Shown: positions 4,361 to 40,601, counted from the stretch's first letter. The stretch: DNA of 64,000 bases from a virus (IMGVR_UViG_3300044977_000034:14059-78058); one strand, 5' to 3'. The notes: generated by a model from the letters alone, not told the origin. Numbers and translations are program-made.

Positions 4361-4402
4361 TACCGGGACGGGCGGCCTATCGCCCGAATCAAGGAGTCGA
4401 AT

Positions 4403-4921
4403 ATGAAAACGAAAACCTTCGATCGCCCGATCGTTGACTTGCAAGCGGCCCGCAAGGCCGCCGCCGAGCGCTTCTACGCCATCGGCATGGCGTGTCTGCC
4501 GGAAGGCTGGACCTACACCTTCCGCAAGGCGCTGAGCGGCCGAGCCTTCCTCGAATTGAAGCGCATCGAGGCGCCGAAGCCGGTGACCCGCAAGGCGCTC
4601 TACATCTGGCTGCATGAGTGCGCGCACGCTCACCTCCACGTCGGATCGCGCAAGACGCGGCACGTCGAGGAGATGGAGGCCGAGAAATGGGCGCATGAGA
4701 AGATGCGCGAACACGGCGTCCCGGTGCCGAAGGCGATGACCAAGCGCGCCAAGCGCTACGTCGCCCACAAGATCAAGCAGGCCCAGGTGCGCGGCGCGAA
4801 GAAGATCGACGCGGAGGCCAAGGCCTTCGCCGAGGGGTCATACGCCAAGGCCAAGGCCGGATCGCGAGGTCCCATCCTGCTGGAACGGCTGCTGAACGGG
4901 ATGTTCAACCGCCGCCGCTAA
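4403..4921 (+). CDS. Zincin-like (HEXXH) metallopeptidase domain protein, ImmA/IrrE- or SprT-like
   Basis: WLHECAHAHLH...EMEAE motif; GGAGTCGAA RBS. Confidence 0.65.
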   Translation: MKTKTFDRPIVDLQAARKAAAERFYAIGMACLPEGWTYTFRKALSGRAFLELKRIEAPKPVTRKALYIWLHECAHAHLHVGSRKTRHVEEMEAEKWAHEKMREHGVPVPKAMTKRAKRYVAHKIKQAQVRGAKKIDAEAKAFAEGSYAKAKAGSRGPILLERLLNGMFNRRR

Positions 4922-5005
4922 ACGAAAAGGCCGCCGCGCTGCGGATGCGCGGCGGCCCCCGTCTCGCCCACAGAAAGGGACTGGAGGTCCCAACAGGAGT
5001 CTACC

Positions 5006-5653
5006 ATGAAACACGCCGTCGCCTACTTCAGAACCAGCTCAGCCACCAACGTCGGCCAGGACAAGGATTCGCTCGCCCGCCAGGAGAGCGCCGTCCGCAG
5101 CTACGCCGCGCGCAACGACATCGAGATCGTCGGCGAATATTACGACGCGGCGGTCAGCGGCGCCGATCCGGTCACGCAGCGCGAGGGATTCAGCCTCATG
5201 CTCCAGCGCATCGCCAGCAACGGCGTGCGGACAATCCTCGTCGAGACAGCGAATCGCTTCGCCCGCGACCTGATGGTGCAGGAGACTGGCTGGAAGATGC
5301 TTCAGGATCTCGGCGTCGAGCTGGTCGCCGTCGATTCGCCCATGAGTTTCGTCGAGGACACGCCGACGGCGAATATGGTCCGGCAGATCCTGGGCGCGGT
5401 GGCCGAGTTCGATAAGGCGCTGACGGTCGCCAAGCTCCGGGGCGCGCGCGAGCGCATGAAGGCCAAGACCGGCAAGTGCGAGGGGCGGAAGAGCTGGGCC
5501 GAGATGGACCCGGCGATGGTCGCGATGGCGCGCGAGCTGCGCCGGTCCGGCAAATCGCTAAACGCGGTGCGCGTAGCCCTGGCGAACCTGGGCTATGTCT
5601 CCGCGAGCGGGACGCCGTTCACGCGATCGGTCGTTTCTCGGATGACCGACTGA
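5006..5653 (+). CDS. Small serine recombinase (resolvase/invertase family)
   Basis: AYFRTSS catalytic motif, DAAVSGA, R.G, ANRFARD, ILGAVAEF and a C-terminal helical DNA-binding region. Confidence 0.9.
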   Translation: MKHAVAYFRTSSATNVGQDKDSLARQESAVRSYAARNDIEIVGEYYDAAVSGADPVTQREGFSLMLQRIASNGVRTILVETANRFARDLMVQETGWKMLQDLGVELVAVDSPMSFVEDTPTANMVRQILGAVAEFDKALTVAKLRGARERMKAKTGKCEGRKSWAEMDPAMVAMARELRRSGKSLNAVRVALANLGYVSASGTPFTRSVVSRMTD

Positions 5654-5760
5654 AACAAAACTTGCAAAAAAATGGTTGACAGCAACGCCAACCCATCGAA
5701 ATATGCGCCTGCGGCGTTCGTGGTGGAACGCCGCAGGCCTAAAAGTGATGGAGAAGCGTT

Positions 5761-7092
5761 ATGAGTATTTCTGCGACTGATAAGCTACGCCTTTTGGACA
5801 ACGTAGACCAGCCTCCCGGCCTCAACGTCGAGATCGTCGACAAATTCGAGGCCCTCCAACCCGGCAAGGCGACTCTGAACAAGGCCCAAACGGCCCTGTT
5901 CGGCTCGGCCTTCCTGCAAGGGCGCAGGCTGCAATTCACGACCTCGATGCCGCTCGGCGATTACCTCAATGTCGTCAGCATGCACCGCGCCGCCAAGGGC
6001 GCGACCGTCGAGGAACTGCGGACCGCCTCCAACCGGACCAAGATCGCCGCGCACGAAAAGGCGATTCGGGAATATCTGGCCGACACTGCGTTCGTCAGCG
6101 AGAAATTCATCTTCCCGAATTTCATGCTGAACTACGGCAGCGCGTGGGACGAGGGCATGCCCAAGGCCAAGCTGACCTTGCTGGCGACCGATCCGGAAAC
6201 CCTGGCGTGGCCAGCGGTCTTTGAGACGGCGACCGGAACCAAGATGCCGGTCACCGACGGCGCGCACCGCACCGGAAGCCTGATCGAGCTGATCGCGAAG
6301 CATCAGAACAAGGCGGGCATCGGCGCGCTTCTCAGCAACTCAGTCGGGCTGACGATTGTCATGGAGGCATCGAAGGACGATGCCCACCAAGACTTCGCCG
6401 ATTGCGGTCGCGCGAAGCCGATCGCGGACAGCGTTCTGGCGACCTTCGACATGCGCAATCAGGTCGTCGCCTTCGCGCGCGATCTGGTGGGCTCAAGCCC
6501 GTTCTTGAGTCGGCATGTCGATGCGACGAGCGCCTCGGTCAACCTGTCGAGCAACTCGACCAAGGTCTGGTCGATGTCGGCGGTGCGCGGCTATCTCATG
6601 GCGGCGATTCCCACGGACAAGCCGTTCCTCGACATGACGGCGGCCGAGCGCGCGGCGGTCTTGCACGAGCATAAGAAGCCGCTGGCGGAGTACATGCACG
6701 CGGTCGTCGAAGGCGTGCCGATCCTCACCGATCTGGCGTCGGAGAAGCCCGACCAGACGCCGGGGGCCTTGCGCAAGCAGCGCGGCGGCTGCGTTCTCAT
6801 GCGCGGCGCCGGATTCGGCGTCCTCATGCGGGCCTACCGGCACGGCCCCGGCAAGACCGGAACGGCGAACGGCGCGATCGCGGCGGCGGTCGAGAAGCTG
6901 GCGGCGGTCGACTGGTTTGTGTTCAAGCCTGGAGTCGGCCAGCAGCCGCTGATGGACGGAGACGCCTACGGCTGGCTCAAGGAGAACGTGCAGCCAGCTT
7001 GGTTTGAAATGATCGCGGTCGATCCCGGCAAAGGCTCGTATCGGCTCAAGGGGACGAACGCTATGATCGACGCCGCGTTCGCCGCCCTCTAA
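5761..7092 (+). CDS. DGQHR/DndB-like domain protein
   Basis: FIFPNFMLN, VTDGAHR, 'HQDFADC..AKPI' motifs typical of the DGQHR/DndB family. Confidence 0.75.
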   Translation: MSISATDKLRLLDNVDQPPGLNVEIVDKFEALQPGKATLNKAQTALFGSAFLQGRRLQFTTSMPLGDYLNVVSMHRAAKGATVEELRTASNRTKIAAHEKAIREYLADTAFVSEKFIFPNFMLNYGSAWDEGMPKAKLTLLATDPETLAWPAVFETATGTKMPVTDGAHRTGSLIELIAKHQNKAGIGALLSNSVGLTIVMEASKDDAHQDFADCGRAKPIADSVLATFDMRNQVVAFARDLVGSSPFLSRHVDATSASVNLSSNSTKVWSMSAVRGYLMAAIPTDKPFLDMTAAERAAVLHEHKKPLAEYMHAVVEGVPILTDLASEKPDQTPGALRKQRGGCVLMRGAGFGVLMRAYRHGPGKTGTANGAIAAAVEKLAAVDWFVFKPGVGQQPLMDGDAYGWLKENVQPAWFEMIAVDPGKGSYRLKGTNAMIDAAFAAL

Positions 7093-7127
7093 CGGCAAGG
7101 GCGCGAGGGCAACCTCGCGCCCGCTCC

Positions 7128-8150
7128 ATGATCGTCCGCCTCACCCATATCGACGGCAAACTGCCGAATCTGGCTTTGATGAAAATCGCCGCCGAGCATC
7201 GCCGCCGGGGCGATACCATCGTTTTCACCAAGGACGTTGAGCGCGGCATGTTCGAGGCCGCTTACGATCGCGTCTACGGTTCAGCCATCTTCGCCTACGA
7301 CCACTCGCTCGCCCGCGTCGAGCGGTTCAAGGCCGCCTTCCCCGACGCCATCCTCGGCGGCACCCATAACCGAGCCAAGCCGATCACCGTCGAGGCGGTC
7401 CTCGGGATCAGCGAGACGGCGCCGGTCGACTATTCGATCTACCCCAAGTTCGACGGCTCCATCGGCTTCACCCAGCGCGGCTGTCGGCTGAAATGCGGCT
7501 TCTGCGTCGTGCCGAAGAAAGAGGGCAAGAACCGCACGATCGCGACGATCTTCGATATCTGGCGCGGGCACGGCCATCCGAAGCATCTGCACCTCCTCGA
7601 CAACGATTTCTTCGGCCAGCCGCGCGACCAGTGGGAGGCGCGAATCGATGAGATCCAGCGGGGCAACTTCATGGTCTGCCTCAACCAGGGCATCAATGTC
7701 CGGATGATCGACGACGTCTCGGCCGCCGCGCTCGCCTCAATCCATTATTGCGACGACAGCTTCACCCGGCGACGGCTCTACACCGCCTGGGACAGCCTGG
7801 GCGACGAGGAGCGGTTCTTCTCCGGCGTCAACACGCTGGAGAAGCACGGCGTGCCGCCGAGCAACCTTCTGGTCTACATGCTGGTCGGCTACGACAAGCG
7901 CGAGACCTGGGAGCGCGTCCTCTATCGCTTCGACAAAATGGTCGCGCGCGGCATCCGGCCCTATCCGATGATCTTCGGCGACCGGCGCCGCAAGCTGCCG
8001 CTGGGCGGCACCAACCAGCGGCTCGACGAACGCACGCTTTCCGAGTTCCAGCGCTGGGCCGTCGGCCGGTTCTACAACGTCTCTTCATTCGAGAACTACG
8101 ACGCGAGCAAGCGCGGCCCGACCGCGACCGACCAGATGAGCCTGTTCTGA
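7128..8150 (+). CDS. Radical SAM protein
   Basis: TQRGCRLKCGFC (CxxxCxxC), LLDNDFF, N-terminal PNLALMKI. Confidence 0.9.
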   Translation: MIVRLTHIDGKLPNLALMKIAAEHRRRGDTIVFTKDVERGMFEAAYDRVYGSAIFAYDHSLARVERFKAAFPDAILGGTHNRAKPITVEAVLGISETAPVDYSIYPKFDGSIGFTQRGCRLKCGFCVVPKKEGKNRTIATIFDIWRGHGHPKHLHLLDNDFFGQPRDQWEARIDEIQRGNFMVCLNQGINVRMIDDVSAAALASIHYCDDSFTRRRLYTAWDSLGDEERFFSGVNTLEKHGVPPSNLLVYMLVGYDKRETWERVLYRFDKMVARGIRPYPMIFGDRRRKLPLGGTNQRLDERTLSEFQRWAVGRFYNVSSFENYDASKRGPTATDQMSLF

Positions 8151-8419
8151 TGCCTGGATTCTGGATGTTCGAGACGAGCGGCGTCCTGCGGCCCGCGATC
8201 GAGGCCTATCTGTTCACGCGCGGGCCGCTGACCGACAAACAGGTCGCGGCGATCAGAGTTTACCTTCGCCAGTGGATCGCCGGACCCTGGCACGCCGCCC
8301 CAGGCGCCGAGGCGCGCGTGCTCGAACGGCTGCGCAGCATGGTCGACCAGCTCGACGACCGGGCGAAGATCGACATCTGGCTGATGCAGGCGAACAGCAT
8401 CGATATCGATCCGCTCTAG
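8150..8419 (+). CDS. Hypothetical protein (MPGFWMFETSG...)
   Basis: TGATG coupling to the radical SAM gene. Confidence 0.65.
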   Translation: MPGFWMFETSGVLRPAIEAYLFTRGPLTDKQVAAIRVYLRQWIAGPWHAAPGAEARVLERLRSMVDQLDDRAKIDIWLMQANSIDIDPL

Positions 8420-8895
8420 CCGCCAAGCTTGACGAATTTCACCAGATCCAGCGGGCACGCGAAATTGCTCTCGACGTTGCCGGTATTACTGACCGGGCAC
8501 GTTCTGATGTACCACTCGTCCGAGGTGCGCTCCTCCACGATCGCGGCTGCGCCCAGGTCGTCGCTCACGCTCACCCAGGCGAAGACGTCACCGATCGCGC
8601 GCCGAACCGAATCCACGCTGGCGACGAAGACCTCGCGGTAGGGCCAATCCCTCCGGCCGGTGAAGGTCACCCCGAGCGTCTTGACCTCGATTCGGAGCCT
8701 CGGGCCGCCCTCTTCCCAGGCGAACACGTCGCCGTTGTCGCGGTAGTTCCTGTGCTCAGCCGCCGTCGGCGCCTCTCGGAGCGGCGGAATCGTGACCCAG
8801 TAGCCTTGCGAACTGAGCCAATAGGCGAAGGCCCACTGCCCACGCTTCGACCCGCGCAATCGGTCGAGGAATTTCGCATGTTGGCTGGTGCCCAA
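8416..8895 (-). CDS. Putative PD-(D/E)XK nuclease-like protein
   Basis: DNGD...IEVK motif; the annotated TTG start lies inside the tRNA 3' end. Confidence 0.55.
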   Translation of the reverse strand: MGTSQHAKFLDRLRGSKRGQWAFAYWLSSQGYWVTIPPLREAPTAAEHRNYRDNGDVFAWEEGGPRLRIEVKTLGVTFTGRRDWPYREVFVASVDSVRRAIGDVFAWVSVSDDLGAAAIVEERTSDEWYIRTCPVSNTGNVESNFACPLDLVKFVKLGG

Positions 8896-8961
8896 GGAAG
8901 GGATCGAACCTCCGACGCCCGCGCCTTCAACGCGGCGCTCTACCAGCTGAGCTACCTGGGC
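8886..8961 (-). tRNA. tRNA-Phe (GAA)
   Basis: 76-nt cloverleaf: GCCCAGG/CTTGGGC acceptor, GCTC/GAGC D-stem, CCGCG-TTGAAGG-CGCGG anticodon arm, GGAGG-TTCGATC-CCTTC T-arm, encoded CCA. Confidence 0.95.
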
Positions 8962-9251
8962 ATCGCGGGAGCCTCCGGGGTTGTGGATGCAGACGTCGTC
9001 CCGGCCGAGCCGTCACTCGTATCTGCGCACGCCCCGGAGGCCCGTAGGCCCGCTTTCTCGAACTCCCAAATGATCCCCAGCCCACCATCCAGCTGATCGA
9101 TCGCCCGACAGATCAAAACCCGCGACTCGACCGTCCGCCCCGACGCCAGCTCGAACTGCGCGTGCTCGACCATCCGCACCGCAAAGCTGACGCGCAGATT
9201 CACCCGCTCGTTCAAAACTTGCAAGCGCCGCTTGGCCAGCCGGTCAATCAT
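8952..9251 (-). CDS. Hypothetical protein
   Basis: MIDRLAKRR...; its stop codon falls inside the tRNA 5' end. Confidence 0.45.
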   Translation of the reverse strand: MIDRLAKRRLQVLNERVNLRVSFAVRMVEHAQFELASGRTVESRVLICRAIDQLDGGLGIIWEFEKAGLRASGACADTSDGSAGTTSASTTPEAPAMPR

Positions 9252-9456
9252 AGGCCTCCAGGCTGTCGATGAACGCGAGCACGCGCTCCTCGCCCAGGCA
9301 CGTCCAGGCCCGGTCATGCATAGCATGGTATGCAAACGCCGCCTTGGCGTGATCGAGATCCGGCGACTCCTCCAGGCAGATCGGCCACAGGATCTCCATG
9401 TCGATCGCCCGCTGCCGCTTATGCCACCACGCCTGAATCAGCGCCCAGAGACCCAT
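9244..9456 (-). CDS. Hypothetical protein
   Basis: 70-aa ORF with AAAGGA RBS. Confidence 0.6.
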   Translation of the reverse strand: MGLWALIQAWWHKRQRAIDMEILWPICLEESPDLDHAKAAFAYHAMHDRAWTCLGEERVLAFIDSLEAYD

Positions 9457-9498
9457 GTTCCTTTTTTGTCTCTCGATAGAGGCGGTATATCATTCGCC

Positions 9499-9617
9499 CG
9501 GTAGGGTGACGATAGCGTCCTCAAGACGTGTTCACCGATCCACGCCAGAAGGTTCGGTCCGCCCACGCGCCTGTCGGATGGACTGAAGGGGCCGGTTCCG
9601 GCGCTGGAGCCGGTCCC
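9499..9617 (+). ncRNA. Candidate three-hairpin small RNA
   Basis: TTGTCT-16-TATCAT upstream; three stems whose G.U pairs work only on the + strand. Confidence 0.35.
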
Positions 9618-9623
9618 ACCCCC

Positions 9624-12987: not shown

Positions 12988-13092
12988 GGAATTGAAAATT
13001 TAATGTTTGAGGTGGGGCAAGCCACTGATTTGACTACCTCGCATTTTATGCAAGATTGGCCTTCAGACGCTCACAGAAGGCCGCTGGCGAGC

Positions 13093-13646: not shown

Positions 13647-13660
13647 GGAGGAACCGAGCC

Positions 13661-14028: not shown

Positions 14029-14100
14029 AAATGGACCCCGCTCACGGGCGATCTATGGCCGTTTAATCGCCTATCGTCTTTTGTGGCTTGAGAGGCGTTT

Positions 14101-14376
14101 GTCCCTGGCTTGTCCCGTCTCAGTCCCGCCTGTTTAAGCGTGTCCGAGCCGAATCGACGCGCGGGACACGCGCGGGACATTGTGCAAGCATTCCGCCCGG
14201 AATTGCTCAGGTCGAGAGGGACAAGCGCGGGACGCAACCAGCCCTATGTATATAAAGCGTGCAAAAAGCGTCGTGATGGCGACGAAAACCTCTTGACCGC
14301 GCGTCCCGCAACGATCATATAGAGGGACATGCGCGCCGCCTACGGCGCCCCAAAAGAGGAGTCGAGATCATGTCCC
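14101..14376. repeat. GGGAC repeat cluster 2 (10 copies, several 11 bp apart)
   Basis: Copies at 14101r, 14112r, 14123r, 14163, 14174, 14218, 14229, 14303r, 14324, 14372r. Confidence 0.7.
14293..14365 (+). promoter_or_regulatory. Early promoter, CCUA-loop hairpin and GGAGTCGA box
   Basis: TTGACC-17-CATATA; GCGCCG-CCTA-CGGCGC hairpin; GGAGTCGA at 14358. Confidence 0.7.
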
Positions 14377-14606
14377 GTTTTGAAATGAAGGTGAACGATA
14401 CCGCCGATTGGGCCGAGCACGATTGGCTCGTTTTCGAGGACGGCGTGATGGTTCATGGGTTCGCTGGGTCCAATGCGGCCGAGCGTTTCATCGCCCGTCG
14501 TCAGGCTGCGATCGCGATCGACAAAGAGATTGCTCGCGCTCGCCGGACGTCTCGCGTGTCGAACGCCGAGGCGCGCCGCATCCACGCTCTTTTGCGGAGG
14601 CGCTGA
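14370..14606 (+). CDS. Early hypothetical protein
   Basis: 78 aa, GGAGTCGA RBS. Confidence 0.75.
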   Translation: MSRFEMKVNDTADWAEHDWLVFEDGVMVHGFAGSNAAERFIARRQAAIAIDKEIARARRTSRVSNAEARRIHALLRRR

Positions 14607-14608
14607 CA

Positions 14609-14671
14609 AGGCGAAACGCGATCGGCTATTGGCCGATCGCGTCCTGGCGTGAGGCGCCAGCTGACGAGCCT
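14609..14671 (+). ncRNA. Type II hammerhead ribozyme 1 (predicted cleavage after C14643)
   Basis: AGGC-GAAA-stem III hairpin-GUC-CTGGCG/TGAGG/CGCCAG-CTGACGA-GCCT; complete catalytic core. Confidence 0.92.
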
Positions 14672-14701
14672 ACCGTCTGCCATCCAACCGGAGTCGAATC
14701 C

Positions 14702-15118
14702 ATGTCACGCGAATCTGATCTGCGCCCGTTCTCGTTTGATGATCTGCCTTGCCGCGACGGCAAGCGCGTCGAGCCCGAAAAATGGGGACCGAAATATTCC
14801 CGGCCGGTGAAACCCGGCAAGCCGGTCGATCGCTGCCCCACCAATTGCGCGAGCGGGCAGAAGTATGACTTCGACGCGGGGAAACACCGGGCGAAGATCC
14901 GGGCGGAGTTCGTCGCCCAGGCTAACGCCGATCGGCGGTCCTGGGCGGAGGGCAAGCCGCGCGCGAAGGCCTGGGGCCTCACCGAGACGATTGTCGACGT
15001 CTACAAGGCGGCCATGCGCGACAAGCGCAAGCGTGAGTTCGCCGCGCAGTCCGCAAAAAATGCCGAGTACCTACAATTTTTTCTCGACGACGACGCCCCG
15101 ATCGCGAGGGCGGCATGA
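14702..15118 (+). CDS. Early hypothetical protein (MSRESDLRPF...)
   Basis: Start set by the GGAGTCGAA RBS at 14690. Confidence 0.7.
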   Translation: MSRESDLRPFSFDDLPCRDGKRVEPEKWGPKYSRPVKPGKPVDRCPTNCASGQKYDFDAGKHRAKIRAEFVAQANADRRSWAEGKPRAKAWGLTETIVDVYKAAMRDKRKREFAAQSAKNAEYLQFFLDDDAPIARAA

Positions 15119-15300
15119 TGACCAAGTGGATTGTGACCTATCCCGGCATCACTCAAGACCTAACCCGCGCCTTCGACAACGAGTCGGAGGCCAAGCAATT
15201 CGCGCGCGTCCGCCGGGATCGCGAACTGCATATGTGGCGCCATGTCCGCCTTGAACGGACCGAGGACAATTGCGTCACCATGATCCCGGTCAAGTTCTAA
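15115..15300 (+). CDS. Early hypothetical protein
   Basis: ATGA coupling. Confidence 0.7.
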   Translation: MMTKWIVTYPGITQDLTRAFDNESEAKQFARVRRDRELHMWRHVRLERTEDNCVTMIPVKF

Positions 15301-15365
15301 GGCGAAACGAGGAGGCCCGTCAGCGGGCTTCCTTGTCGCGCGGTGAGGCCGCGCCTGATGAGCCT
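15300..15365 (+). ncRNA. Type II hammerhead ribozyme 2 (predicted cleavage after C15337)
   Basis: AGGC-GAAA-13-bp stem III-GUC-GCGCGG/TGAGG/CCGCGC-CTGATGA-GCCT. Confidence 0.93.
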
Positions 15366-15383
15366 AACCAACAGGAGTCGAAT

Positions 15384-15668
15384 ATGACAGACCGCAAGAT
15401 TGATTACGTGACCTTTGACGATGACCCGGACGGGCTCGATTGGAAGGCGCCGATCTACGACAAGGACGGGACGCCTCGTCCGCAAATTGTCTTGATGGCG
15501 CTCGCCTACCGCGACGGGAGCGATGACCTCGTCGATTCGCTAAGCACCATCGATTTCTATCAGGAGCGCGGCGACTGGATTCGGGGGACGTTCCGGCGCG
15601 TGCGGGACATCCCGGCGCGTTGCGCCCATCTGCGTGAGGTCGCGGAACAGCTGGGGTTGAAGCAATGA
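15384..15668 (+). CDS. Early hypothetical protein (MTDRKIDY...)
   Basis: GGAGTCGAA RBS at 15374. Confidence 0.7.
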   Translation: MTDRKIDYVTFDDDPDGLDWKAPIYDKDGTPRPQIVLMALAYRDGSDDLVDSLSTIDFYQERGDWIRGTFRRVRDIPARCAHLREVAEQLGLKQ

Positions 15669-16002: not shown

Positions 16003-16098
16003 ATATAAAAACGGTTGCCATGTTGACAAGTTTTGCAGTCAACGCTATCTGAGAGGGGCGCGGCGCCTACCGCGCCCCTTAACTTTTTTGGAGTCGAA
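16003..16098 (+). promoter_or_regulatory. Early promoter, CGCCUA-loop hairpin and GGAGTCGAA box
   Basis: TTGACA(16023)-17-TATCTG. Upstream ATAAAAACrGTyGCCATGTTG is shared with the 18.7-kb promoter. 10-bp hairpin at 16054-79. Confidence 0.75.
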
Positions 16099-16102: not shown

Positions 16103-17011
16103 ATGCGTGACCTACACCGAGAAATTACCGACAAAATCCTCGCCCAGCTCAAGACGGGCGTGGCGCCCTGGCGCAAGCCCTGGTCTGAGCACGTCCAGGC
16201 GCACGGTTCCGTGATGCCGCGCAACGCCGTCACCGGCCGCGCCTATTCGGGCGCCAACGTCCTGTTGTTGTGGGGCGTAGCGCAGACTGAGGGCTACGGC
16301 CCGAGGTGGCTGACGTTCAAACAGGCCAAGGCGGCTGGCGGGACTGTGCGCGCGGGCGAGCACGGCGTGGCCGTGATCTTCGTCAAGCGCATGCTGGTGC
16401 GCGATCGAAAGGACCCGGACGCGCACAAGACGATCGGTTTTCTCAAGGCCTATACCGTGTTCAACACGGCCCAGTGCGACGGCTTGCCGGACTCGGTCCT
16501 GGGCATTGGCGAGGCTCCCCTGCACCGCCCGGTGAACCCGGACGGGCGCGATGCTGACCTCGATGCCTTCGTCGCGGCGACCGAAATTCGCTTTGTCGAG
16601 CAAGGCATCAAAGCCCAATATTCGCCCCTGTTCGACCGCATCGAGATGCCGCCTTTCGCCCAGTTCAAGGGCGCCCATCCGTACTACGCGACCATGTTCC
16701 ATGAGATGGGGCACGCCACCGGCCACAAGAGCCGCCTGGACCGCAACCTCAACAACAAATTCGGCGACCGCTCCTATGCGGCCGAGGAGCTAATCGCCGA
16801 GCTAACGTCGGCCTTTGTGTGCGCGGAGTGGGGCATCGACATGGGCGAGGCTCCGGCCGCCTACATCGAGACCTGGGTCTCGCTCCTGGCCGAGAAGGAA
16901 ACGGCGATCGTGACCGCCGCTGCGGCGGCCTCGCGCGCGGTGGAGTGGATGCGGGGCGCGGCGAGCGCCGAGGAGGCGGACGAGGACGAACCCCTGCCCA
17001 TGGCCGCCTAA
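16103..17011 (+). CDS. ardC: Antirestriction protein ArdC (ssDNA-binding plus zincin domains)
   Basis: PWRKPW, PRNAVTGRAYSGAN, WLTFKQA, YTVFN..QC, HEMGHATGH..RLDR, YAAEELIAE. Confidence 0.93.
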   Translation: MRDLHREITDKILAQLKTGVAPWRKPWSEHVQAHGSVMPRNAVTGRAYSGANVLLLWGVAQTEGYGPRWLTFKQAKAAGGTVRAGEHGVAVIFVKRMLVRDRKDPDAHKTIGFLKAYTVFNTAQCDGLPDSVLGIGEAPLHRPVNPDGRDADLDAFVAATEIRFVEQGIKAQYSPLFDRIEMPPFAQFKGAHPYYATMFHEMGHATGHKSRLDRNLNNKFGDRSYAAEELIAELTSAFVCAEWGIDMGEAPAAYIETWVSLLAEKETAIVTAAAAASRAVEWMRGAASAEEADEDEPLPMAA

Positions 17012-17266: not shown

Positions 17267-17328
17267 GGGCGAAACGGCGGCCGAGCGATCGGCCGTTGTC
17301 GCGGCGTAAGGCGCCGCCTGATGAGCCT
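17267..17328 (+). ncRNA. Type II hammerhead ribozyme 3 (predicted cleavage after C17300)
   Basis: GGGC-GAAA-stem III with GCGA tetraloop-GUC-GCGGCG/TAAGG/CGCCGC-CTGATGA-GCCT. Confidence 0.93.
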
Positions 17329-17343
17329 AAACAGGAGTCGAAA

Positions 17344-17847
17344 ATGATTAGTGACGAAGACAAGCTTGCGGCGGCCGAGGCGCTCGACCGGGCCTATGCA
17401 AAGGCGGAGGCCTTTGACGCGGCGCAAGAGGAAGACCGCAAATTGGATGCCTACGGGCATCTGACGTGGACGCTTGGGGATGACGATTGGATGGCGTGTT
17501 TCGACGCCGTCCGGATAGGCTCCGAGATCGCCTACCACGTCGTGGTCGACTGTGAGTCGGGCGGTTTTATCTCCACAATCGAGAAGGGCGTCGTGCCAGT
17601 TAGCGAGGCCGCGCGCCTCATTAATCTGCCGAGCCAGTACGTTGATATGGCGATCGAGAACCATCTCGACGCGCGCCGTAAACGCGAACCCGTGGGCCGG
17701 TTCGCCTATCGCGGCTGCGAGAAGCGCTGGGCGCGACATATCAAGCAGCTCATCAAGCAAAAGCCGGAGCCCCAGGACGATGACGTCGAGGACGTTGACC
17801 AAGCGGCCGAGCTACGCAAGGCGGCGCTGAATCGGGGGCAACCATGA
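17344..17847 (+). CDS. Early hypothetical protein (MISDEDKL...)
   Basis: GGAGTCGAA RBS at 17334. Confidence 0.7.
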   Translation: MISDEDKLAAAEALDRAYAKAEAFDAAQEEDRKLDAYGHLTWTLGDDDWMACFDAVRIGSEIAYHVVVDCESGGFISTIEKGVVPVSEAARLINLPSQYVDMAIENHLDARRKREPVGRFAYRGCEKRWARHIKQLIKQKPEPQDDDVEDVDQAAELRKAALNRGQP

Positions 17848-18077: not shown

Positions 18078-18151
18078 GAACGCGAGCGGGACGGCGTCGA
18101 GCAATCGTCGCCGCCTCGCGGGCGCTCTTGCCCGGTTAAGGAGTCGAACCC

Positions 18152-18672: not shown

Positions 18673-18765
18673 AAATAAAAACAGTCGCCATGTTGCCTCT
18701 TTTCGCATAGCATGCCATATCAGGACCGGGCGGCGCCTACCGCCCGGTTTTCTTTTGGAGTCGAA
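18673..18765 (+). promoter_or_regulatory. Early promoter, CGCCUA-loop hairpin and GGAGTCGAA box
   Basis: TTGCCT(18693)-17-CATATC; ACCGGGCGG-CGCCTA-CCGCCCGGT; box at 18757. Confidence 0.7.
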
Positions 18766-21341: not shown

Positions 21342-21413
21342 AGGCCAGCGCGCGCGCCTCGACGTTTCGGGGCGCGGTCGCGGGCAATCCGCCCGGTAGA
21401 GAGAGTCGAACCA

Positions 21414-34434: not shown

Positions 34435-34913
34435 TGAGCTGGGTACTTGCGCTCCTACCGGGCGCTATCGCGGCGCGGCTGAAAGAGCCGAAGCCGAACG
34501 GGACCGTCGCTCTGCTCGCGCTCAAAGAGCGAAACGCCGAGCTGAAGGAGAAGCTGCGCCTTTGCGAAGCGGCCCGCGACGCAGCTCGCGCCGATCGCGA
34601 CCAAAGCGACGCCCAGCTGCGCATGGTCCTTCGCAGATTCGCGGAGGAACAGGCCGCGCGCCTTCAGCTCCAACGCGACCTGATCGAGGCGCAGGCGTTC
34701 CAGCGCGCCGAGCGCGAAGTCTTGGGGCCGCTCCTCGCCCAAAGCGTCATGCTGCCGCTGCCAGCGCGCGCCATGCTGCCGCTGCCAGCGCCGACGATCG
34801 TGCCGCTGACGCAGAGCCTGGAGAACGCCATGCGGCAAATGGACGAGTTCATCTGCAACTGCGCGCCTGGGCGCCATGAGATCCTCAACCTCAACCGCCT
34901 GTTCGAGGAGTAA
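34431..34913 (+). CDS. Coiled-coil hypothetical protein
   Basis: ATGA coupling; internal MLPLPA tandem repeat. Confidence 0.65.
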   Translation: MMSWVLALLPGAIAARLKEPKPNGTVALLALKERNAELKEKLRLCEAARDAARADRDQSDAQLRMVLRRFAEEQAARLQLQRDLIEAQAFQRAEREVLGPLLAQSVMLPLPARAMLPLPAPTIVPLTQSLENAMRQMDEFICNCAPGRHEILNLNRLFEE

Positions 34914-34954
34914 AACCAACCGGGCCGCCTACGGCCCCTCGGGGGAAGAGTCGA

Positions 34955-35275
34955 ATGAGTGGACGAGCGAAGTGGTCGCTTGCGCAGCGTTTTTGGGCGC
35001 ATGTCGATATTCGGGGGCCAGACGAATGCTGGCCGTGGATGGGCTGCAAGCCCGACAGATATCCATTCTTCCGGGCTGGAACGAAAGCTTATCACGCCTC
35101 TCGCATCGCCTTCATGCTCGCGACCGGGCGGTGGACTGATTACTTGCGGCACTCCTGTGACTATCCGCCGTGCGTCAATCCCGGCCATCTGGTCGAAAGT
35201 ACTCATGCCGAGAACGTCGCCGACATGTACGCGAAGGGGCGCGATCGTTGCTGGGGATGGGGGGTAAGCCGATGA
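34955..35275 (+). CDS. HNH endonuclease (His-Cys type)
   Basis: RFWAHV...CWPWMG, ASRIAF, RHSCDYPPCVNPGHL...ENVAD. Confidence 0.88.
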   Translation: MSGRAKWSLAQRFWAHVDIRGPDECWPWMGCKPDRYPFFRAGTKAYHASRIAFMLATGRWTDYLRHSCDYPPCVNPGHLVESTHAENVADMYAKGRDRCWGWGVSR

Positions 35276-35805
35276 GGCGCGAGTGCGGCGACTGTCAATT
35301 GTGCTGTAAATTATTGCCCGTCAAAGGAATCAACAAGCCCGCGAACACGCGGTGCCAGCATCAGCGGCACGGGAAGGGGTGCGCCGTCTACCACAAGCCC
35401 CAGAAAGGGTTCCCGTGGGAGTGCGGCTACTGGAATTGCGTCTGGCTTCAGGGTGATGACGCGGCGGAGCTGCGCCGCCCGGATCGCGCTCATTACGTTT
35501 TGGATATCATGCCCGATTACGTGACTGCACAGGACCCCAAGCTCGGCGAGGTCCGAATCCCCTGCATCCAGATCTGGTGCGATCCGAAATACCCTGACGC
35601 CCACCGAGACCCCGCGCTGCGGGCATGGCTGATCCGGCGCGACGGATTCGTCGGCCTCGTCCGCTACAGCAACGACAGCGGGGACTTCGTGCTGATCCCG
35701 CCGTACATGATGGAAAACGGCGAGTGGCTTGAGAAGCGCCAAGGCAATGTTCAAGAGGGCAATCATTCGTTCGGCCAAATCCTCGATGCTCTGAGTGGCG
35801 CATGA
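35272..35805 (+). CDS. Cys-cluster (YkgJ-like) protein
   Basis: CGDCQLCC...C.H...GCAVY...C...C. Confidence 0.7.
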   Translation: MRRECGDCQLCCKLLPVKGINKPANTRCQHQRHGKGCAVYHKPQKGFPWECGYWNCVWLQGDDAAELRRPDRAHYVLDIMPDYVTAQDPKLGEVRIPCIQIWCDPKYPDAHRDPALRAWLIRRDGFVGLVRYSNDSGDFVLIPPYMMENGEWLEKRQGNVQEGNHSFGQILDALSGA

Positions 35806-36074
35806 GACGGGCCGCCCTGGCTGTGATCGCCATCACACTGGCGACCGATTCGGCCGCCGCATGCCGCAAGCACGCCATCTGGAAATACCCGTGGCCCCAA
35901 CCGTGCTTCACCGCCTATGCGCCGCAGCCGCTCCGGCATCGCGCCGATGAGCAAAGCCACGACTGGACCGTCGAGATCACCAAGCTGCCGCCGAGGTGGA
36001 ACCTCGACGAGCCGCGCCTGGAAGACCCTGATCGGGCCAAGGGGCTCGATTTACTAAAGGAGCAACTCAAATGA
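35802..36074 (+). CDS. Hypothetical exported protein
   Basis: Signal-peptide-like N-terminus. Confidence 0.55.
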   Translation: MRRAALAVIAITLATDSAAACRKHAIWKYPWPQPCFTAYAPQPLRHRADEQSHDWTVEITKLPPRWNLDEPRLEDPDRAKGLDLLKEQLK

Positions 36075-36409
36075 GTGACGAGTCGAACCACTTCGCTGAT
36101 CACGAAGGACAAGCCATTCGCCCCGGCGTCGGCATCCCAGTGAGCGCGCCACTGCGCGAAACCCCCGCCTTCAAGCGCATGCTCGGGGCCATCCCGCCCT
36201 CCGAGAAAGAGATCCTGGCCGACGCCGATCACGGAATCGCCGCCGTCGCCAACGGCAATGCTGTCAAGCGCTCCGAGGCGCGGCGCGACGCCATTCTCGC
36301 AGTCTCGCTAGCGATCGTGCGGCGCGGCCAGAACCCGGTCACGGACTGGACGACGCGGGACACGGACACGGCCTACGCCATCGCGGACCAGCTCATCGCG
36401 CTGTCATGA
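36071..36409 (+). CDS. Hypothetical protein
   Basis: AAGGAG RBS, ATGA coupling. Confidence 0.65.
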   Translation: MSDESNHFADHEGQAIRPGVGIPVSAPLRETPAFKRMLGAIPPSEKEILADADHGIAAVANGNAVKRSEARRDAILAVSLAIVRRGQNPVTDWTTRDTDTAYAIADQLIALS

Positions 36410-36433
36410 ACCGCCTACAAACGGAGTCGAACC

Positions 36434-36733
36434 ATGCCAAAATTCAGCCATCAAGACCTAGCGGAAGCGTTCCAATTCACCAGCGAGTACGGACCCGGAT
36501 TCGGCGAAAGGTGGTCACTGTCCCAGTCTCGGCAGGAGACAACGAGGCTGAGAAGACGCCTGGAGAGATACGCCATGCCGTTCGAGCTGGTCGACCACGG
36601 AAACGACGTCTGGGAGCTGATTCAAGAGGCTCCGATGAGCCGGTCGGACTATATGGGCCGCCTGTTTGGGCCTGAACGAAAGGACGACAGCAACCGTTGC
36701 CGCGTTGGCGCGTTTGCCTACGACCATTTGTGA
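36434..36733 (+). CDS. Hypothetical protein
   Basis: GGAGTCGAA RBS at 36423. Confidence 0.6.
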   Translation: MPKFSHQDLAEAFQFTSEYGPGFGERWSLSQSRQETTRLRRRLERYAMPFELVDHGNDVWELIQEAPMSRSDYMGRLFGPERKDDSNRCRVGAFAYDHL

Positions 36734-36762
36734 CGAAAGCCCAGGCGTTCACCTAAAAGCAT

Positions 36763-36791
36763 TTGCACGTTGTGCAAAATCTGCCTAAATT
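36763..36791 (+). promoter_or_regulatory. Promoter overlapped by an operator
   Basis: TTGCAC-17-TAAATT; operator TTGCACGTTGTGCAA. Confidence 0.65.
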
Positions 36792-36797
36792 GACGGC

Positions 36798-36910
36798 GTT
36801 GGCCGGAGCCCACACTCCGGCCCACACTTCGCCCCTCAAGCGCACCAAGGGGGCGGAGGGAGGGGGACCCGCTGCCCGAGACCGCCTCTCCTAAAGCCGG
36901 TCCCCCTCTA
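36798..36910 (+). ncRNA. Candidate three-hairpin small RNA with C-rich loops
   Basis: Three stems downstream of the promoter; no ORF; loop 3 contains CCGCCUCUCCU. Confidence 0.45.
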
Positions 36911-36911
36911 C

Positions 36912-37094
36912 CTACCCGAGCCTTCCTGTCAGCAGCAAGACAATCACGATGATCAACAGAATCGTGATCAAGCTGATGCCGCCATTGCCGAATCCGTAGC
37001 CGGGTTGCCAGGGCGCGCCGGAATAGAAGCGCGGGCCGACGCCTCCCACCAGAATCACGATCAGAATGATGAGGAGGATGGTTCCGAGGCTCAT
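36912..37094 (-). CDS. DUF3309-family small membrane protein
   Basis: MSLGTILLIILIVILVGG...GYG..GG...ILLIIVIVLLLTGRL. Confidence 0.8.
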   Translation of the reverse strand: MSLGTILLIILIVILVGGVGPRFYSGAPWQPGYGFGNGGISLITILLIIVIVLLLTGRLG

Positions 37095-37095
37095 A

Positions 37096-37338
37096 TCACT
37101 GTCCCAGGATTCTGATTGCTCCGAGCACTCCGACTACGATCGCGACGAACTCCAGGGCAAACTTCGATATCGAGCCGTTGGTGCAACCCTCCGGCACTGG
37201 CTTGCTCACGAAAACAAACTGGAAGCACGCCCACTCGGCGTAGAGCGTGCCAAACGCGAACAGGAACAGGATGCCGAAGATCGACAAAATGGCGATGAGC
37301 AGCAGCTGCCGATAAGTTTTTTTGTCCTCATCGCTCAT
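37096..37338 (-). CDS. Two-TM membrane protein, possible holin
   Basis: Two hydrophobic segments; ATGA-coupled to the endolysin. Confidence 0.55.
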   Translation of the reverse strand: MSDEDKKTYRQLLLIAILSIFGILFLFAFGTLYAEWACFQFVFVSKPVPEGCTNGSISKFALEFVAIVVGVLGAIRILGQ

Positions 37339-37787
37339 GCAAAGCCGCTGCGGGTGCCCTTGTTGTCGATGGTCAAGGCTTGATGGCGCGGCTCGCCAGC
37401 GGTCAGACCGAGATGCACCCAAGTGTCATATTCGTGGATGAGCTGGTCGATACCCAGCTCCTTCATGTGTGAGTGGAGATGCTTGCAAATCTTCAGCGGC
37501 GTGCCGAAACCAGGGCAGCTGAAGTCGACCGCGAGCGCGCTCATGTGCGCGGATGACTTGCTGCCCCCGACTGCCGCATTGACCTGGGGGCTGCGATAGC
37601 CGGAACTGACCAGAATCGGCTTGTCGCCAAGCAAGGTGCGAACCTTCTCCATCACCTCGGCGGTGCGGGTGAGGTTCTTGCGCTCCTGACTGCTGGCAGG
37701 CGGCACGTTGTTGAGGCCTTTGCGGGCCGCCGTCTGGCTGTCTGTAAATTCCTCAAGCGTGAAATGCGGCGTAAGTTGAGTGGCCAT
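37335..37787 (-). CDS. Endolysin, peptidase M15 family
   Basis: LTPHFTLEEF, SSGYRS..VN..VGG...SAH...AVDF, DQLIHE...WVH. Confidence 0.92.
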   Translation of the reverse strand: MATQLTPHFTLEEFTDSQTAARKGLNNVPPASSQERKNLTRTAEVMEKVRTLLGDKPILVSSGYRSPQVNAAVGGSKSSAHMSALAVDFSCPGFGTPLKICKHLHSHMKELGIDQLIHEYDTWVHLGLTAGEPRHQALTIDNKGTRSGFA

Positions 37788-37881
37788 GGGATTCCCTCCC
37801 ATTGCCGACCGGCTAGCCCGCCGCAGTTATGCCACAGATCGACGGCGGCTGTCCCCATTCGCGATTCGTTCTTCGAGGAAC

Positions 37882-37907
37882 AAAAAGGGGGCGGCCAAAG
37901 CCGCCCC
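37882..37907 (-). terminator. Rho-independent terminator
   Basis: GGGGCGGC-TTTG-GCCGCCCC-CTTTTT on the - strand, after the PEP-CTERM gene. Confidence 0.75.
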
Positions 37908-37934
37908 AATGTCCTTCTACGCGAAAGGAAAACC

Positions 37935-38585
37935 TCAGAACGCGAGACGCTCCTTGGCGCGCCTGTGCAGCCCGAGCAGGCTCAGCAAGCCGAAGCCGAG
38001 CACCAGCATGGCCCAGGTCGAGGGCTCCGGAACGCCGGTCACCAACTGAACCGAGCCGCCGAACGACTGCCTCGGCGCCGTGAAGTCGATGGCGAATTGG
38101 GCCTCGTCCGAGGTGAACGCGCCAGCCGCCGCCGAAACCGGACCAAAGGAGCCGTCGAGCAGCGTGGCTGGGAACGTGTGCGTGGCGAGCAGCCCGCCAT
38201 CGGCGAAGGTCCGCTCGGTCGTCGGGCCTGGATCGTTGGTCAGGCCGTTGACCGTGAAAGTTGACAGCGTGTTCCCTGTCCCCGTGATGGCGCTTTGGAT
38301 GACGTCGATCGTCAGCTCGTGCGAGCCGCTGAATCCCGCCGCCGCAGTGGCGTCGAGCGTCACGGCGGAGAGGTCCGCCTTGGGCAGAATCGGCGAGCCT
38401 TGAGCGTTGATGGTGATGTTGGCGAAGTTCGCGTCGTTGGCCGTGAGGCTCGCCGCGCCGGTCGTGATCCCCGTGATGTTGTCGATCAAGGTTCCGTTGT
38501 CGAACACCTCGATGCTCAACGTCGCCTTGGCCGGACCCGCGCCGATCGCCGCGAGAACCGCCGTAGTCAGTAGCAATCTATGCAT
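37935..38585 (-). CDS. PEP-CTERM (PEPxxWA-CTERM) surface protein
   Basis: Signal peptide (…AGPAKA), Thr/Gly-rich body, VPEPSTWAMLVLGFGLLSLLGLHRR tail. Confidence 0.9.
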   Translation of the reverse strand: MHRLLLTTAVLAAIGAGPAKATLSIEVFDNGTLIDNITGITTGAASLTANDANFANITINAQGSPILPKADLSAVTLDATAAAGFSGSHELTIDVIQSAITGTGNTLSTFTVNGLTNDPGPTTERTFADGGLLATHTFPATLLDGSFGPVSAAAGAFTSDEAQFAIDFTAPRQSFGGSVQLVTGVPEPSTWAMLVLGFGLLSLLGLHRRAKERLAF

Positions 38586-38660
38586 GGAAAGACCCCTAGA
38601 GTTGGATGCCGAATCGTAGCCTTTCTACAACTCGATGAATACAAATAAATTACATCCGTC

Positions 38661-38722
38661 TTGCAGTCCATGCAAAAAAATCAGCGGCGGAGGCGCAGTG
38701 GGAGGAACGCGCCGCCGCCGCT
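38661..38722 (-). terminator. Terminator abutting a TTGCA-N5-TGCAA operator
   Basis: Long GC stem with loop GUUCCUCCCACU and a U7 tail; TTGCAGTCCATGCAA at 38661-75. Confidence 0.7.
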
Positions 38723-38770
38723 TCAACCGCCTATTGCCCCTGCGCTAGAGACCTCGGCGATTCAGCCTGT

Positions 38771-39469
38771 TTACCGCTTGGGCTGTCGCTCCGGAGGCGT
38801 CGGCAACGGCTGGCCTGGAGCCGGACGGCTTGGCGGCAGGCCTTGGCCCGGACGCGGCGGAATCCCCGGCCTAGTCGGCGGCAGGGGTTGGCCTGCGGTC
38901 GGGGGACGGCCCGGTCGGCCGCCGGGGAGGCTTTGGTCGGGGTGCTCCTCGCCAACGCCATAGTCAGGATCGGTCGGCCGCTCCGGCCGCACCGGAACAT
39001 CGATCACCGCCCACCGCGAGCCGACGCCCGAAATAAAGATCACCGCGAGCGCCTTGCCCGGAGGGACGCTCGGAGGCAGCGGCGGCCAGACGGAGCCCGG
39101 AGGCAGCTCTGGAAGACCGGGAGGAACCTCCGGCGGCAAGCCCTGATCGGGACTCTCTGGATCGATCGGGTAGACCGGGAGCTGACCCGATTCGGCGCCT
39201 TCATCTACGCCATAACCCGGATCGCGACCGCCCCAACCGCCCCACGAACCCGGAGGACGATTGCCCGGATGCTCGCCGCCGCCCCAACCCCAGCCCGGAT
39301 CGACCGGACGGCCAGGACGACCGGGCAAATGGCCGGGACGCTCGGGACGGCCGGGAAGCCCGCCGCCGATTTCAGCGCCTTCGTCAATGCCATAGTCGGG
39401 GTCGACAGGGCGCCCCGCGTGATCAAAGTGAACTGGTTGAAGCCAGACTAACTGCTTTCCTCGTGCCAT
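38771..39469 (-). CDS. Pro/Gly-rich repeat protein
   Basis: AGGAG RBS; repeats RPVDPDYG/RPVDPGWG/RDPGYG/PTDPDYG and P.Q.LP. Confidence 0.7.
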   Translation of the reverse strand: MARGKQLVWLQPVHFDHAGRPVDPDYGIDEGAEIGGGLPGRPERPGHLPGRPGRPVDPGWGWGGGEHPGNRPPGSWGGWGGRDPGYGVDEGAESGQLPVYPIDPESPDQGLPPEVPPGLPELPPGSVWPPLPPSVPPGKALAVIFISGVGSRWAVIDVPVRPERPTDPDYGVGEEHPDQSLPGGRPGRPPTAGQPLPPTRPGIPPRPGQGLPPSRPAPGQPLPTPPERQPKR

Positions 39470-39540
39470 GCGTTTCTCCTTCTTGGGGTTCGCCTCTCCC
39501 TTGTGCGCCTTGGCGGTAGCACGAATCGATGACGGGCGGG

Positions 39541-40536
39541 CTACCACTTGATGATTTTCATCGTGCAAGTTGTGGGCTGGATGTTGTTGTGGGCGCCCGA
39601 GCTGCCCGCAGGGGCGAGGTTAGCGTAGCCGGTTCCGATATAGACGCCGCTGGCGGACGCGCCCCCGGTGTTTGCAGCGCTTTGAGAGACAGCGCCAGTA
39701 CTGGGGTACGTCCCGCCATAAAGGGCGAAATTCGTCGCCTCGGTGTAGCCGTGGGTGTGGTTGTCCTGAGACGCGGCATGGCCATGGCCATAGTCGCCGT
39801 GGGTGTGGGACGGCATCTCGGCCGCCGACAACGTGTGATAGGCCTCGCCCGCGAAGGTCACCACGCCCCAGCTGTTGAGGATGCCCCGGTTGCCCTCGTT
39901 CTGGGCGTAAGGCCCCGAGGGAGGAACCGTGCCGATCTGGTCCGCCATCGCGGTCACCGTGCCGCGATAATCGGGGACCCTGAACGAGCCGCCGCTGACC
40001 CCCCAGGTCCCGCCGATGATGTCGTACAGCAGATCATGCTGGGCCTGACTCACATATCGGCCGTCGCACGGCAGCCAGCCGTTGTGGATAAAGGTCGTCG
40101 GCATATCCGCCACCGTCCCCGGAGGGCAACCGGCGTAATCCCAATAGACCCGGCTCGGGGTGACGATGATCGGATAGGGGATGCCGAAGCTGGTGAAGAA
40201 ATAAATCCCGATCTGGTCGTTGAAGTTGTTGCCGCGCACATAGAGCGCGTGGCCGTTGAGGTTGATCCCCTGAATGACGATCCGGCGACCTCCGATCGGC
40301 GGGTAGCTGATGTACTGGTCGCTGCTCAGCGTGCCGGTCAGATAGAGGATCGGATTGGCGGCCTGGGCGATGGTGAGTTCGATCGTTCCGCCTGAACACG
40401 AGAGGACGTACTGCCCGCCATACGCCGTGTCGAGCGTATTGAGCGAGCCATCCATAGGGGTGTCCCAGCCGGTCGCGGCGTAGTCTCCATGAGCGGGAAT
40501 TTCCAAACTTAAGTTAGGTGTAAAAGTGCTAACCAT
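39541..40536 (-). CDS. Tail-collar domain (short tail fibre) protein
   Basis: GWLPCDG..VS....LLYDIIGGTWG...FRVPDYRG, HTLSAAEMPSHTH, HNNIQP...IIK. Confidence 0.85.
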   Translation of the reverse strand: MVSTFTPNLSLEIPAHGDYAATGWDTPMDGSLNTLDTAYGGQYVLSCSGGTIELTIAQAANPILYLTGTLSSDQYISYPPIGGRRIVIQGINLNGHALYVRGNNFNDQIGIYFFTSFGIPYPIIVTPSRVYWDYAGCPPGTVADMPTTFIHNGWLPCDGRYVSQAQHDLLYDIIGGTWGVSGGSFRVPDYRGTVTAMADQIGTVPPSGPYAQNEGNRGILNSWGVVTFAGEAYHTLSAAEMPSHTHGDYGHGHAASQDNHTHGYTEATNFALYGGTYPSTGAVSQSAANTGGASASGVYIGTGYANLAPAGSSGAHNNIQPTTCTMKIIKW

Positions 40537-40551
40537 CGGTATTTCCAGATC

Positions 40552-40601
40552 TTGCAGTTCGTGCAAAAAGCGCTATATTTGGGCGGCCTACAGGAGTCGA
40601 A
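40552..40601 (+). promoter_or_regulatory. Operator-overlapped promoter with GCCTAC and GGAGTCGAA box
   Basis: TTGCAG-16-TATATT; TTGCAGTTCGTGCAA. Confidence 0.7.

Follow-up and report, generated by a model that had tools for sequence, protein, structure and literature searches.

How do genes whose messages would start at a promoter and genes whose messages would start at a self-cleaving ribozyme come to carry leaders of the same design? The question is raised by the early region of a soil phage, studied here in a 64,000-nt stretch (IMGVR_UViG_3300044977_000034:14059-78058, i.e. bases 14059-78058 of a 78,058-bp virus record of ~63% G+C; hereafter the window). The early genes of this phage are arranged as small cassettes, and start codons are preceded by a short box, GGAGUCGA, that is a Shine-Dalgarno GGAG plus UCGA. 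The sequence GCCUA recurs shortly upstream of this box, both in hairpins that follow promoter-like sites and in three type II hammerhead ribozymes, and an initial annotation of the window had joined these occurrences into a candidate ribozyme-gated control system. Our analysis revealed that the CCUA loop of the promoter leaders is specific to a clade of related phages and that the GCCUA of the ribozymes is generic. On balance we lean towards regarding promoter hairpins and hammerheads as interchangeable leader cassettes, similar to the RiboJ and PeSL elements. The motif, its conservation, the generic hammerhead GCCUA, a complementarity within the ribozymes and the swapping of cassettes have been observed directly.

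The association of GCCUA with the box is far beyond chance. Thirteen exact GGAGTCGA boxes lie on the + strand, 12 of them with an ATG directly after, and GCCTA is found within 30 nt upstream of 11 of the 13, in agreement with the remark of the initial annotation that GCCUA usually lies shortly before the box. Since the + strand of the 78,058-bp genome contains 59 copies of GCCTA, the chance of finding one is ~2% per 30-nt interval, and thus 11/13 has, by our own arithmetic, a probability of the order of 1e-17. A genome-wide excess of GCCTA on the sense strand is due mostly to GCC-TAx (Ala-Tyr) codons, 34 of the 49 sense-strand coding copies being in frame 0. Comparison by eye of the box and CCUA with the 16S rRNA 3' tail (an alphaproteobacterial sequence, which may not be the host's) revealed pairing only for GGAG, and complementarity between CCUA and the box in cis was not found. 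GANTC is the CcrM methylation motif of Alphaproteobacteria. The GAGTC within the box is a GANTC site, yet a link to CcrM was rejected: the genome as a whole shows no more than a mild depletion of GANTC, and few of its GANTC sites are boxes. The five hairpins and three unstructured sites reported initially were all found in place, as were the three hammerheads described further below:

4369-4386, + strand: P0 leader hairpin, loop CCUA (G.U closing pair), after TTGCAA-17-TATAAT; box 4393-4400, ATG 4403
14333-14348, + strand: P1 leader hairpin, loop CCUA, after TTGACC-17-CATATA; box 14358-14365, ATG 14370
16054-16079, + strand: P2 leader hairpin, loop CGCCUA, with a U-run 3' of it (terminator-like), after TTGACA-17-TATCTG; box 16090, ardC ATG 16103
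17006-17010, + strand: GCCTA outside a simple hairpin, in the last Ala codon and stop codon of ardC; box 17025, ATG 17036
18725-18748, + strand: P3 leader hairpin, loop CGCCUA, then UUUUCUUUU, after TTGCCT-17-CATATC; box 18757, ATG 18769
34922-34937, + strand: P4 intergenic hairpin, loop CCUA, without a promoter-like site; box variant AGAGTCGA 34947-34954, HNH endonuclease ATG 34955
36413-36417, + strand: unstructured GCCUA, 4 nt past a stop codon; box 36423, ATG 36434
40586-40590, + strand: unstructured GCCUA, ~7 nt past a -10-like TATATT (TTGCAG as -35, 16/17 spacing); box 40593, ATG 40605

CCUA is unpaired in the predicted folds of all the hairpin leaders. The putative promoters of P0-P3 and of the 40586 site were read by eye as -35/17 bp/-10 arrangements. 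At P2 and P3 a U-run directly follows a G+C-rich hairpin, as is characteristic of intrinsic terminators, and a terminator scan called 16053-16080 terminator-like; P0, P1 and P4 have no such U-run. As for the three sites outside hairpins, the GCCTA at 17006 is the ardC Ala-stop end and is explained by coding, the GCCUA at 36413 is missing from the corresponding junction of one of the relatives introduced below (G003), where a different gene lies downstream, and the one at 40586 is probably situated at the very 5' end of its transcript, given its position ~7 nt after the -10-like TATATT. The gene behind P4 (34955-35275) encodes an HNH endonuclease (PHROG E = 1.5e-21) and is likely a mobile gene with its own leader. 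Two further interpretations of these elements were rejected: an ops/RfaH-like GGCGGTAG is confined to a single hairpin class and lies on its antisense strand, and the hairpin leaders are not degenerate hammerheads, as neither a CUGANGA nor a GAAA core is found nearby.

Searches of phage and plasmid collections retrieved no close relatives of the window phage, and it was in IMG/VR that a clade sharing these leaders was identified, on contigs of 46-78 kb. A composite pattern matched 13 loci there, often several per contig, and protein relatives were found as well; four relatives (G001-G004) were compared in full, together with a distant one (G005). The CCUA leader motif is kept in at least 14 related phage contigs. 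It is retained in the ArdC leaders of 9/9 orthologues, on at least six different stems, and in all the orthologues of P1 (nine in the alignment) and P3; in the ArdC and P1 leader alignments no block other than GCCTA and the box is invariant, and the spacers vary freely. In G001 and G004 the orthologues of P0 have the loop ACCUAC, and those of P4 combine another stem with the loop GCGCCUA. Conservation in orthologous leaders, the absence of which would have told against the initial annotation, is thus evident. For a broader census all clade instances of GAGTCGA directly before a start codon were gathered; the 116 leaders left once duplicates had been discarded comprise 25 hammerheads, 36 hairpins with a CCUA loop, eight leaders with CCUA and no clean hairpin, and 47 without CCUA. 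In a count blind to the motif, 31 of the 45 strong hairpins lying within 20 nt of a box (hammerheads aside) had CCUA in the loop, and 14 had other loops. Inner stems of 11 different sequences underlie these 31 hairpins, each of the pair positions 2 to 6 being G-C in some and C-G in others, and their loops of 4-7 nt (CCUA, GCCUA, CGCCUA, CGCCUAA, ACCUAC) hold CCUA at the 3' side. Other terminators of the clade phages have unrelated loops. CCUA is therefore selectively maintained in no fewer than five independent leader classes, yet it is not obligatory for the box.

The CCUA leaders were not found in the more distant relatives G005, L015, L016 and L017. One of them (L016:2200-7500) has another standard leader before most of its early genes, AACCCCAAACCA followed by GGAGUC, with no CCUA, and hammerheads were not detected in it. 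Within the window itself, a different conserved leader of two hairpins occurs at 18078-18151 and ~21342-21413, in the slot occupied elsewhere by hammerheads, with GCCUC replacing GCCUA; the loop of its second hairpin is GCUCUU (boxA-like), and the leader is kept in at least five relatives.

Three ribozymes of the window share the box with these promoter leaders:

14609-14672, + strand: HH1, type II hammerhead with core CUGACGA; predicted cut after C14643, GCCUA 14668-14672, box 14690, ATG 14702
15299-15366, + strand: HH2, type II hammerhead; predicted cut after C15337, GCCUA 15362-15366, box 15374, ATG 15384
17267-17329, + strand: HH3, type II hammerhead with stem II GGGC/GCCU; predicted cut after C17300, GCCUA 17325-17329, box 17334, ATG 17344

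Direct reading and a pattern and pairing scan revealed a complete conserved core in all three (CUGANGA, GAAA, the A15.1-U16.1 pair and a GUC cleavage triplet), with C at the free position N7 in HH1. The helices comprise 7 bp in stem I, 11-13 bp in stem III and 4 bp in stem II, the last being formed by AGGC or GGGC with GCCU; loops cap both stem I and stem III, and stem II is open and made by the 5' and 3' ends. As stated in the initial annotation, GCCU is the 3' strand of stem II in each ribozyme and is followed by A. The 5' start lies at or adjoins the previous stop codon. Among ~25 distinct hammerheads of the clade many different paired sequences occur in stems I and III around an unchanged core, i.e. 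the changes are compensatory. The Rfam model RF02276 scored 24.7 bits for HH2 and 23.9 bits for HH3 and did not list HH1 at E <= 5, the gathering score being 37; the length of stem III and two extra bases in stem II lower the score, while the defining core and helices are present. At gathering thresholds Rfam recognised only a tRNA, and weak matches to PtaRNA1, BjrC68 and snoRNA families in a permissive scan were regarded as chance. The AUG within the CUGAUGA core of HH2 (15357-15386) and HH3 (17320-17346) opens a frame of nine or eight codons whose UGA stop overlaps the AUG of the downstream gene (AUGA), with no Shine-Dalgarno before the core AUG.

To what extent is GCCUA a peculiarity of these ribozymes? 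A scan of IMG/VR for type II hammerheads, in which the bases after CUGAUGAG were left unconstrained, retrieved 132 distinct ribozymes from 90 loci outside the clade. CUGAUGA-GCCUA was present in 23 of these 132 unrelated hammerheads, all belonging to the short-stem-I subclass into which HH1-HH3 also fall, and representing 47% (23/49) of it. GCCUA is the commonest form of this subclass, which occurs in many unrelated phages. In none of the 23 is it followed by the box, the G+C content of the loci ranges from 40 to 59%, and CCUA-loop hairpins are not enriched elsewhere in the unrelated phages that carry such hammerheads. The GCCUA of the window ribozymes thus represents a generic stem II plus one A and needs no special explanation. 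Hammerheads from unrelated contexts with the same GCCUA stem II had been named beforehand as evidence that would speak against cleavage-gated recruitment of a factor, and their frequency weakens that claim.

Promoter leaders and hammerhead leaders do replace each other in front of the same gene. An orthologous gene for a 138-aa protein (14702) has the HH1 leader in the window and the P1 promoter-hairpin leader in G003 and L002, since the cassette consisting of a 78-aa gene and HH1 is absent there (stretches compared for this indel: window 14323-14702, L028:4044-4086 and L002:2639-2681). The promoter and leader of the 40586 class recur in four genomes, each time before another gene (window 40540-40604; G002, G003, G004); this leader reads GCCUACAG-GAGUCGA, and a TTGCA-N5-TGCAA-like site lies over its -35.

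A further resemblance between the two kinds of leader concerns the tail that follows GCCUA in the hammerheads, which is often complementary to the catalytic strand (CUGAUG/CAUCAG, CUGACG/CGUCAG, CUGAUGAG/CUCACCAG). When the predicted 3' cleavage products of 24 clade hammerheads were folded to minimum energy, 15 formed a second hairpin that is closed by the catalytic strand and the tail and holds CCUA in its loop. Pairing of the tail with five or more core nucleotides occurs in 65% of the clade hammerheads, compared with 35% for shuffled tails, and in 74% of the 23 unrelated hammerheads of the GCCUA type, compared with 38%; the respective binomial p values are 0.003 and 0.0005. Other types of hammerhead reached 34% against 30-33%. 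In a larger independent set (84 hammerheads from 82 IMG/VR loci among L048-L212) the tail was complementary in 67%, as opposed to 35% for shuffled tails (p = 6e-9). The alternative hairpin of the unrelated GCCUA-type hammerheads places GCCUA(A) in the loop. It is not to be confused with the known pseudoknot that joins the tail to loop I, and some copies have both. The hairpin of catalytic strand and tail may be a general post-cleavage or inactive conformer, and HH1 could form a weak version of it (GACG / AGCCUAC / CGUC). The idea that a 5' end made by a ribozyme mimics a promoter-proximal leader, already contained in the initial annotation, gains support from these predicted CCUA-loop hairpins (15/24) and from the exchange of leaders before the same gene.

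Taken as interchangeable cassettes, the leaders would have their 5' end set either by a sigma-70-type promoter or by self-cleavage of a type II hammerhead just past the previous stop codon, and would then present one or two G+C-rich hairpins, a single-stranded spacer of 6-17 nt, the box and the AUG. CCUA is the invariant part of the hairpin loop in promoter leaders, and in hammerhead leaders GCCU primarily supplies the 3' strand of stem II (4 bp), with an unpaired A after it. In ~60% of the clade hammerheads the tail past GCCUA is complementary to the catalytic strand CUGAnGA(G); the cut would free the short stem II, allowing the 3' product to refold into a second hairpin whose loop would display (AG)CCUA as far from the box as is usual. 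Such a refolded hairpin would make ribozyme and promoter leaders structural equivalents that have been swapped in evolution. By established knowledge or the precedent of RiboJ (PMC6206723), 5'-terminal hairpins and 5'-hydroxyl ends would slow 5'-end-dependent decay, and removal of the upstream context would render translation independent of the neighbouring gene. Like the hairpin of the engineered RiboJ, the 5' hairpins of the cassettes would shield the mRNA and keep the ribosome site insulated, and the P2 and P3 hairpin classes, with their U-runs, may in addition act as terminators for the upstream unit.

Several observations weigh against this reading. In this phage the promoters, the cleavage, the refolding and the protection and insulation by 5' hairpins are all inferred, and a consensus promoter scan did not call the promoters of the leaders. 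CCUA is absent from 47/116 box leaders (40%), so the box does not require it. Pair counting on MAFFT alignments of the ArdC orthologues revealed only modest covariation, with a single pair changed on both sides, in part because of shifts in the alignment. Among the hammerheads of the window only HH1 can form the alternative hairpin, and weakly, since the spacers of HH2 and HH3 are too short (8 and 5 nt). Covariation cannot confirm this hairpin because its 5' arm is the invariant ribozyme core, and at the free position N7 it was not significant (p = 0.11). Furthermore, Pfam and PHROGs scans of at least 20 early proteins, which small arginine-rich proteins can escape, recognised no RNA-binding protein family among the early genes. 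As to why the loop of promoter leaders must be CCUA, a sequence-specific reader, either protein or RNA, is our most natural guess; the conjecture that the invariant loop is read by a phage or host factor is tentative, and we would sooner expect it to fail than to hold. It is quite doubtful that the spent hammerhead is recycled in such a way that its refolded GCCUA loop becomes the same signal as in the promoter leaders, read by a dedicated factor controlling the stability or translation of early-gene mRNAs. If true, ribozyme cutting and refolding would create a binding site for that factor, i.e. a natural ribozyme-to-leader switch.

The model of the initial annotation assigned the same sequence a different role: single-stranded CCUA, masked in stem II until self-cleavage and product release, would recruit a boxB-like antitermination or translation factor. 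The conservation and exposure of CCUA in the leaders without ribozymes agree with it, as do a stem II of only 4 bp, from which the products should part after the cut, and the interchangeability of hammerhead and promoter leaders. Nonetheless, GCCUA is the commonest stem II strand of its subclass and occurs in unrelated phages from which both the box and further CCUA-loop hairpins are absent, so that its presence in ribozymes is no pointer to a shared factor; the loops, of 4-7 nt with CCUA, are not boxB-like and have no boxA adjacent to them, 40% of the box leaders do without CCUA, and the scans of early proteins yielded no candidate. Neither a factor nor a boxB-like site or antitermination element was found, and we judge this model improbable. 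The opposite view, that the hammerhead GCCUA is purely ribozyme structure and the CCUA loops are a separate signal of the clade's promoter-proximal or terminator hairpins (e.g. an RNase site, or one at which a factor for termination or antitermination acts), functionally unconnected with the ribozymes, draws on the 47% base rate of GCCUA in the subclass, which makes a chance match not unlikely, on the two hairpin classes that precede U-runs like intrinsic terminators, and on the inability of HH2 and HH3 to form a CCUA-loop hairpin. Such a coincidence would leave aside the tails complementary to the catalytic strand, which yield CCUA-loop hairpins in 15/24 clade hammerheads, the likeness between the P1 leader past GCCUA and the hammerhead tails (GCCUACG..CCAA(A)CU before the box in both), and the substitution of one leader type for the other before the same gene; we regard it as unlikely, with perhaps a minor chance of being correct.

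GCCTA and GGAGTCGA might also serve, not as RNA signals, but as short homologies at which cassettes are inserted, deleted or swapped. The cassette of the 78-aa gene and HH1, present here and absent in G003 and L002, does break at the leaders, the 40586-class promoter and leader stand before four different genes in four genomes, and the PeSL elements (PMC2839356; PMC4122927) provide a precedent. However, five and eight bases on the two sides of a variable spacer offer very little length for homologous exchange, and the restriction to one strand at a constant distance before the AUG, the position of CCUA in the loop and the compensatory changes in the stems all argue for selection at the RNA level, which renders recombination joints very unlikely as an explanation.

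Some components of this arrangement have been described in other systems. Clustered type II hammerheads that flank single genes in prophages, including an anti-restriction gene, and that cleave in vitro were reported by Perreault et al. in 2011 (PMC3088659), together with a pseudoknot between loop I and the tail. The ribozymes of phages and prophages represented there and in RF02276 resemble those of the clade in their complete core, closed stems I and III and open stem II, and likewise sit between small early genes beside an anti-restriction gene, their presumed role being to cut a long transcript into single-gene messages. The clade ribozymes differ in sharing a downstream leader (GCCUA, spacer, GGAGUCGA) with genes started from promoters and in a tail that often pairs with the catalytic strand, besides or instead of the loop I pseudoknot; the Rfam scores obtained in the window lie under the gathering cut-off. 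RiboJ consists of a ribozyme and a 23-nt hairpin placed before the ribosome-binding site, and its terminal hairpin may stabilise the mRNA (PMC6206723). The clade element is on paper alike in that the upstream context would be removed and a hairpin left at the new 5' end near the ribosome site, giving a uniform leader. RiboJ, however, is engineered and derived from the type III sTRSV hammerhead, whereas the clade element is natural, of type II, and would build its second hairpin from the spent catalytic strand.

In T4-type phages, PeSL promoter/stem-loop elements have been proposed to aid gene shuffling (PMC2839356, PMC4122927). Much as in those phages, units of a putative sigma-70-type promoter, stem-loop, Shine-Dalgarno and start codon are repeated between small early genes (here P0-P3 and 40586, with promoters read by eye) and are linked to gene indels or replacements among close relatives (here the indel of a gene plus HH1, and one leader before four genes). 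In the clade, however, the stem-loop lies downstream of the promoter and within the transcript rather than upstream, the conserved part is the CCUA loop rather than the stem, and some units are replaced by ribozymes. A lambda-type nut site, with boxA and a boxB hairpin bound by N, similarly offers a hairpin with a conserved loop shortly past early promoters. The clade loops, with CCUA in 4-7 nt, are no GNRA-like pentaloops, and no boxA lies beside them; each genome contains many such sites, compared with two in lambda, immediately before the Shine-Dalgarno; and an N-like protein was not found in the same Pfam and PHROGs scans, subject to the proviso on small arginine-rich proteins given above.

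Phage operons punctuated by hammerheads have thus been known since 2011 (PMC3088659), and PeSL cassettes are likewise known (PMC2839356, PMC4122927). What our study adds is the clade-specific, invariant CCUA loop common to several promoter leaders, along with evidence showing the GCCUA of the ribozymes to be generic. The hairpin of catalytic strand and tail as a bridge between leader types is possibly new as well, although no literature search aimed at such complementarity was made; the complementarity is widespread in type II hammerheads of the GCCUA type (67% compared with the 35% expected) and, if real, bears on product release and on the prevention of re-ligation. On the purpose of bacterial and phage hammerheads, the clade offers a clean comparison in which the same genes have a leader made by a ribozyme or by a promoter. 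Both kinds of leader end in a hairpin, CCUA, a spacer and a ribosome-site module, and hence the proposal that ribozymes act as natural insulators and makers of 5' ends could be tested with reporters.

Besides ArdC, the window phage encodes a large terminase, a DNA-ejection protein, virion proteins and collagen-like tail fibres, as well as a primase, an AAA helicase-type protein, RecT, a YqaJ-type exonuclease, a SNF2 helicase and a DndB-like protein. The composite pattern had 12 single matches in genome contigs, located in coding DNA of unrelated phyla (e.g. Walker-B-like LADEP stretches), with no hammerheads and no prophage among them. A soil DNA run contains a small share of the sampled words from the window phage. 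The phage also carries a tRNA, for which the Rfam match reached 59 bits and the anticodon was read by eye:

8889-8961, - strand: phage tRNA, anticodon GAA (Phe)

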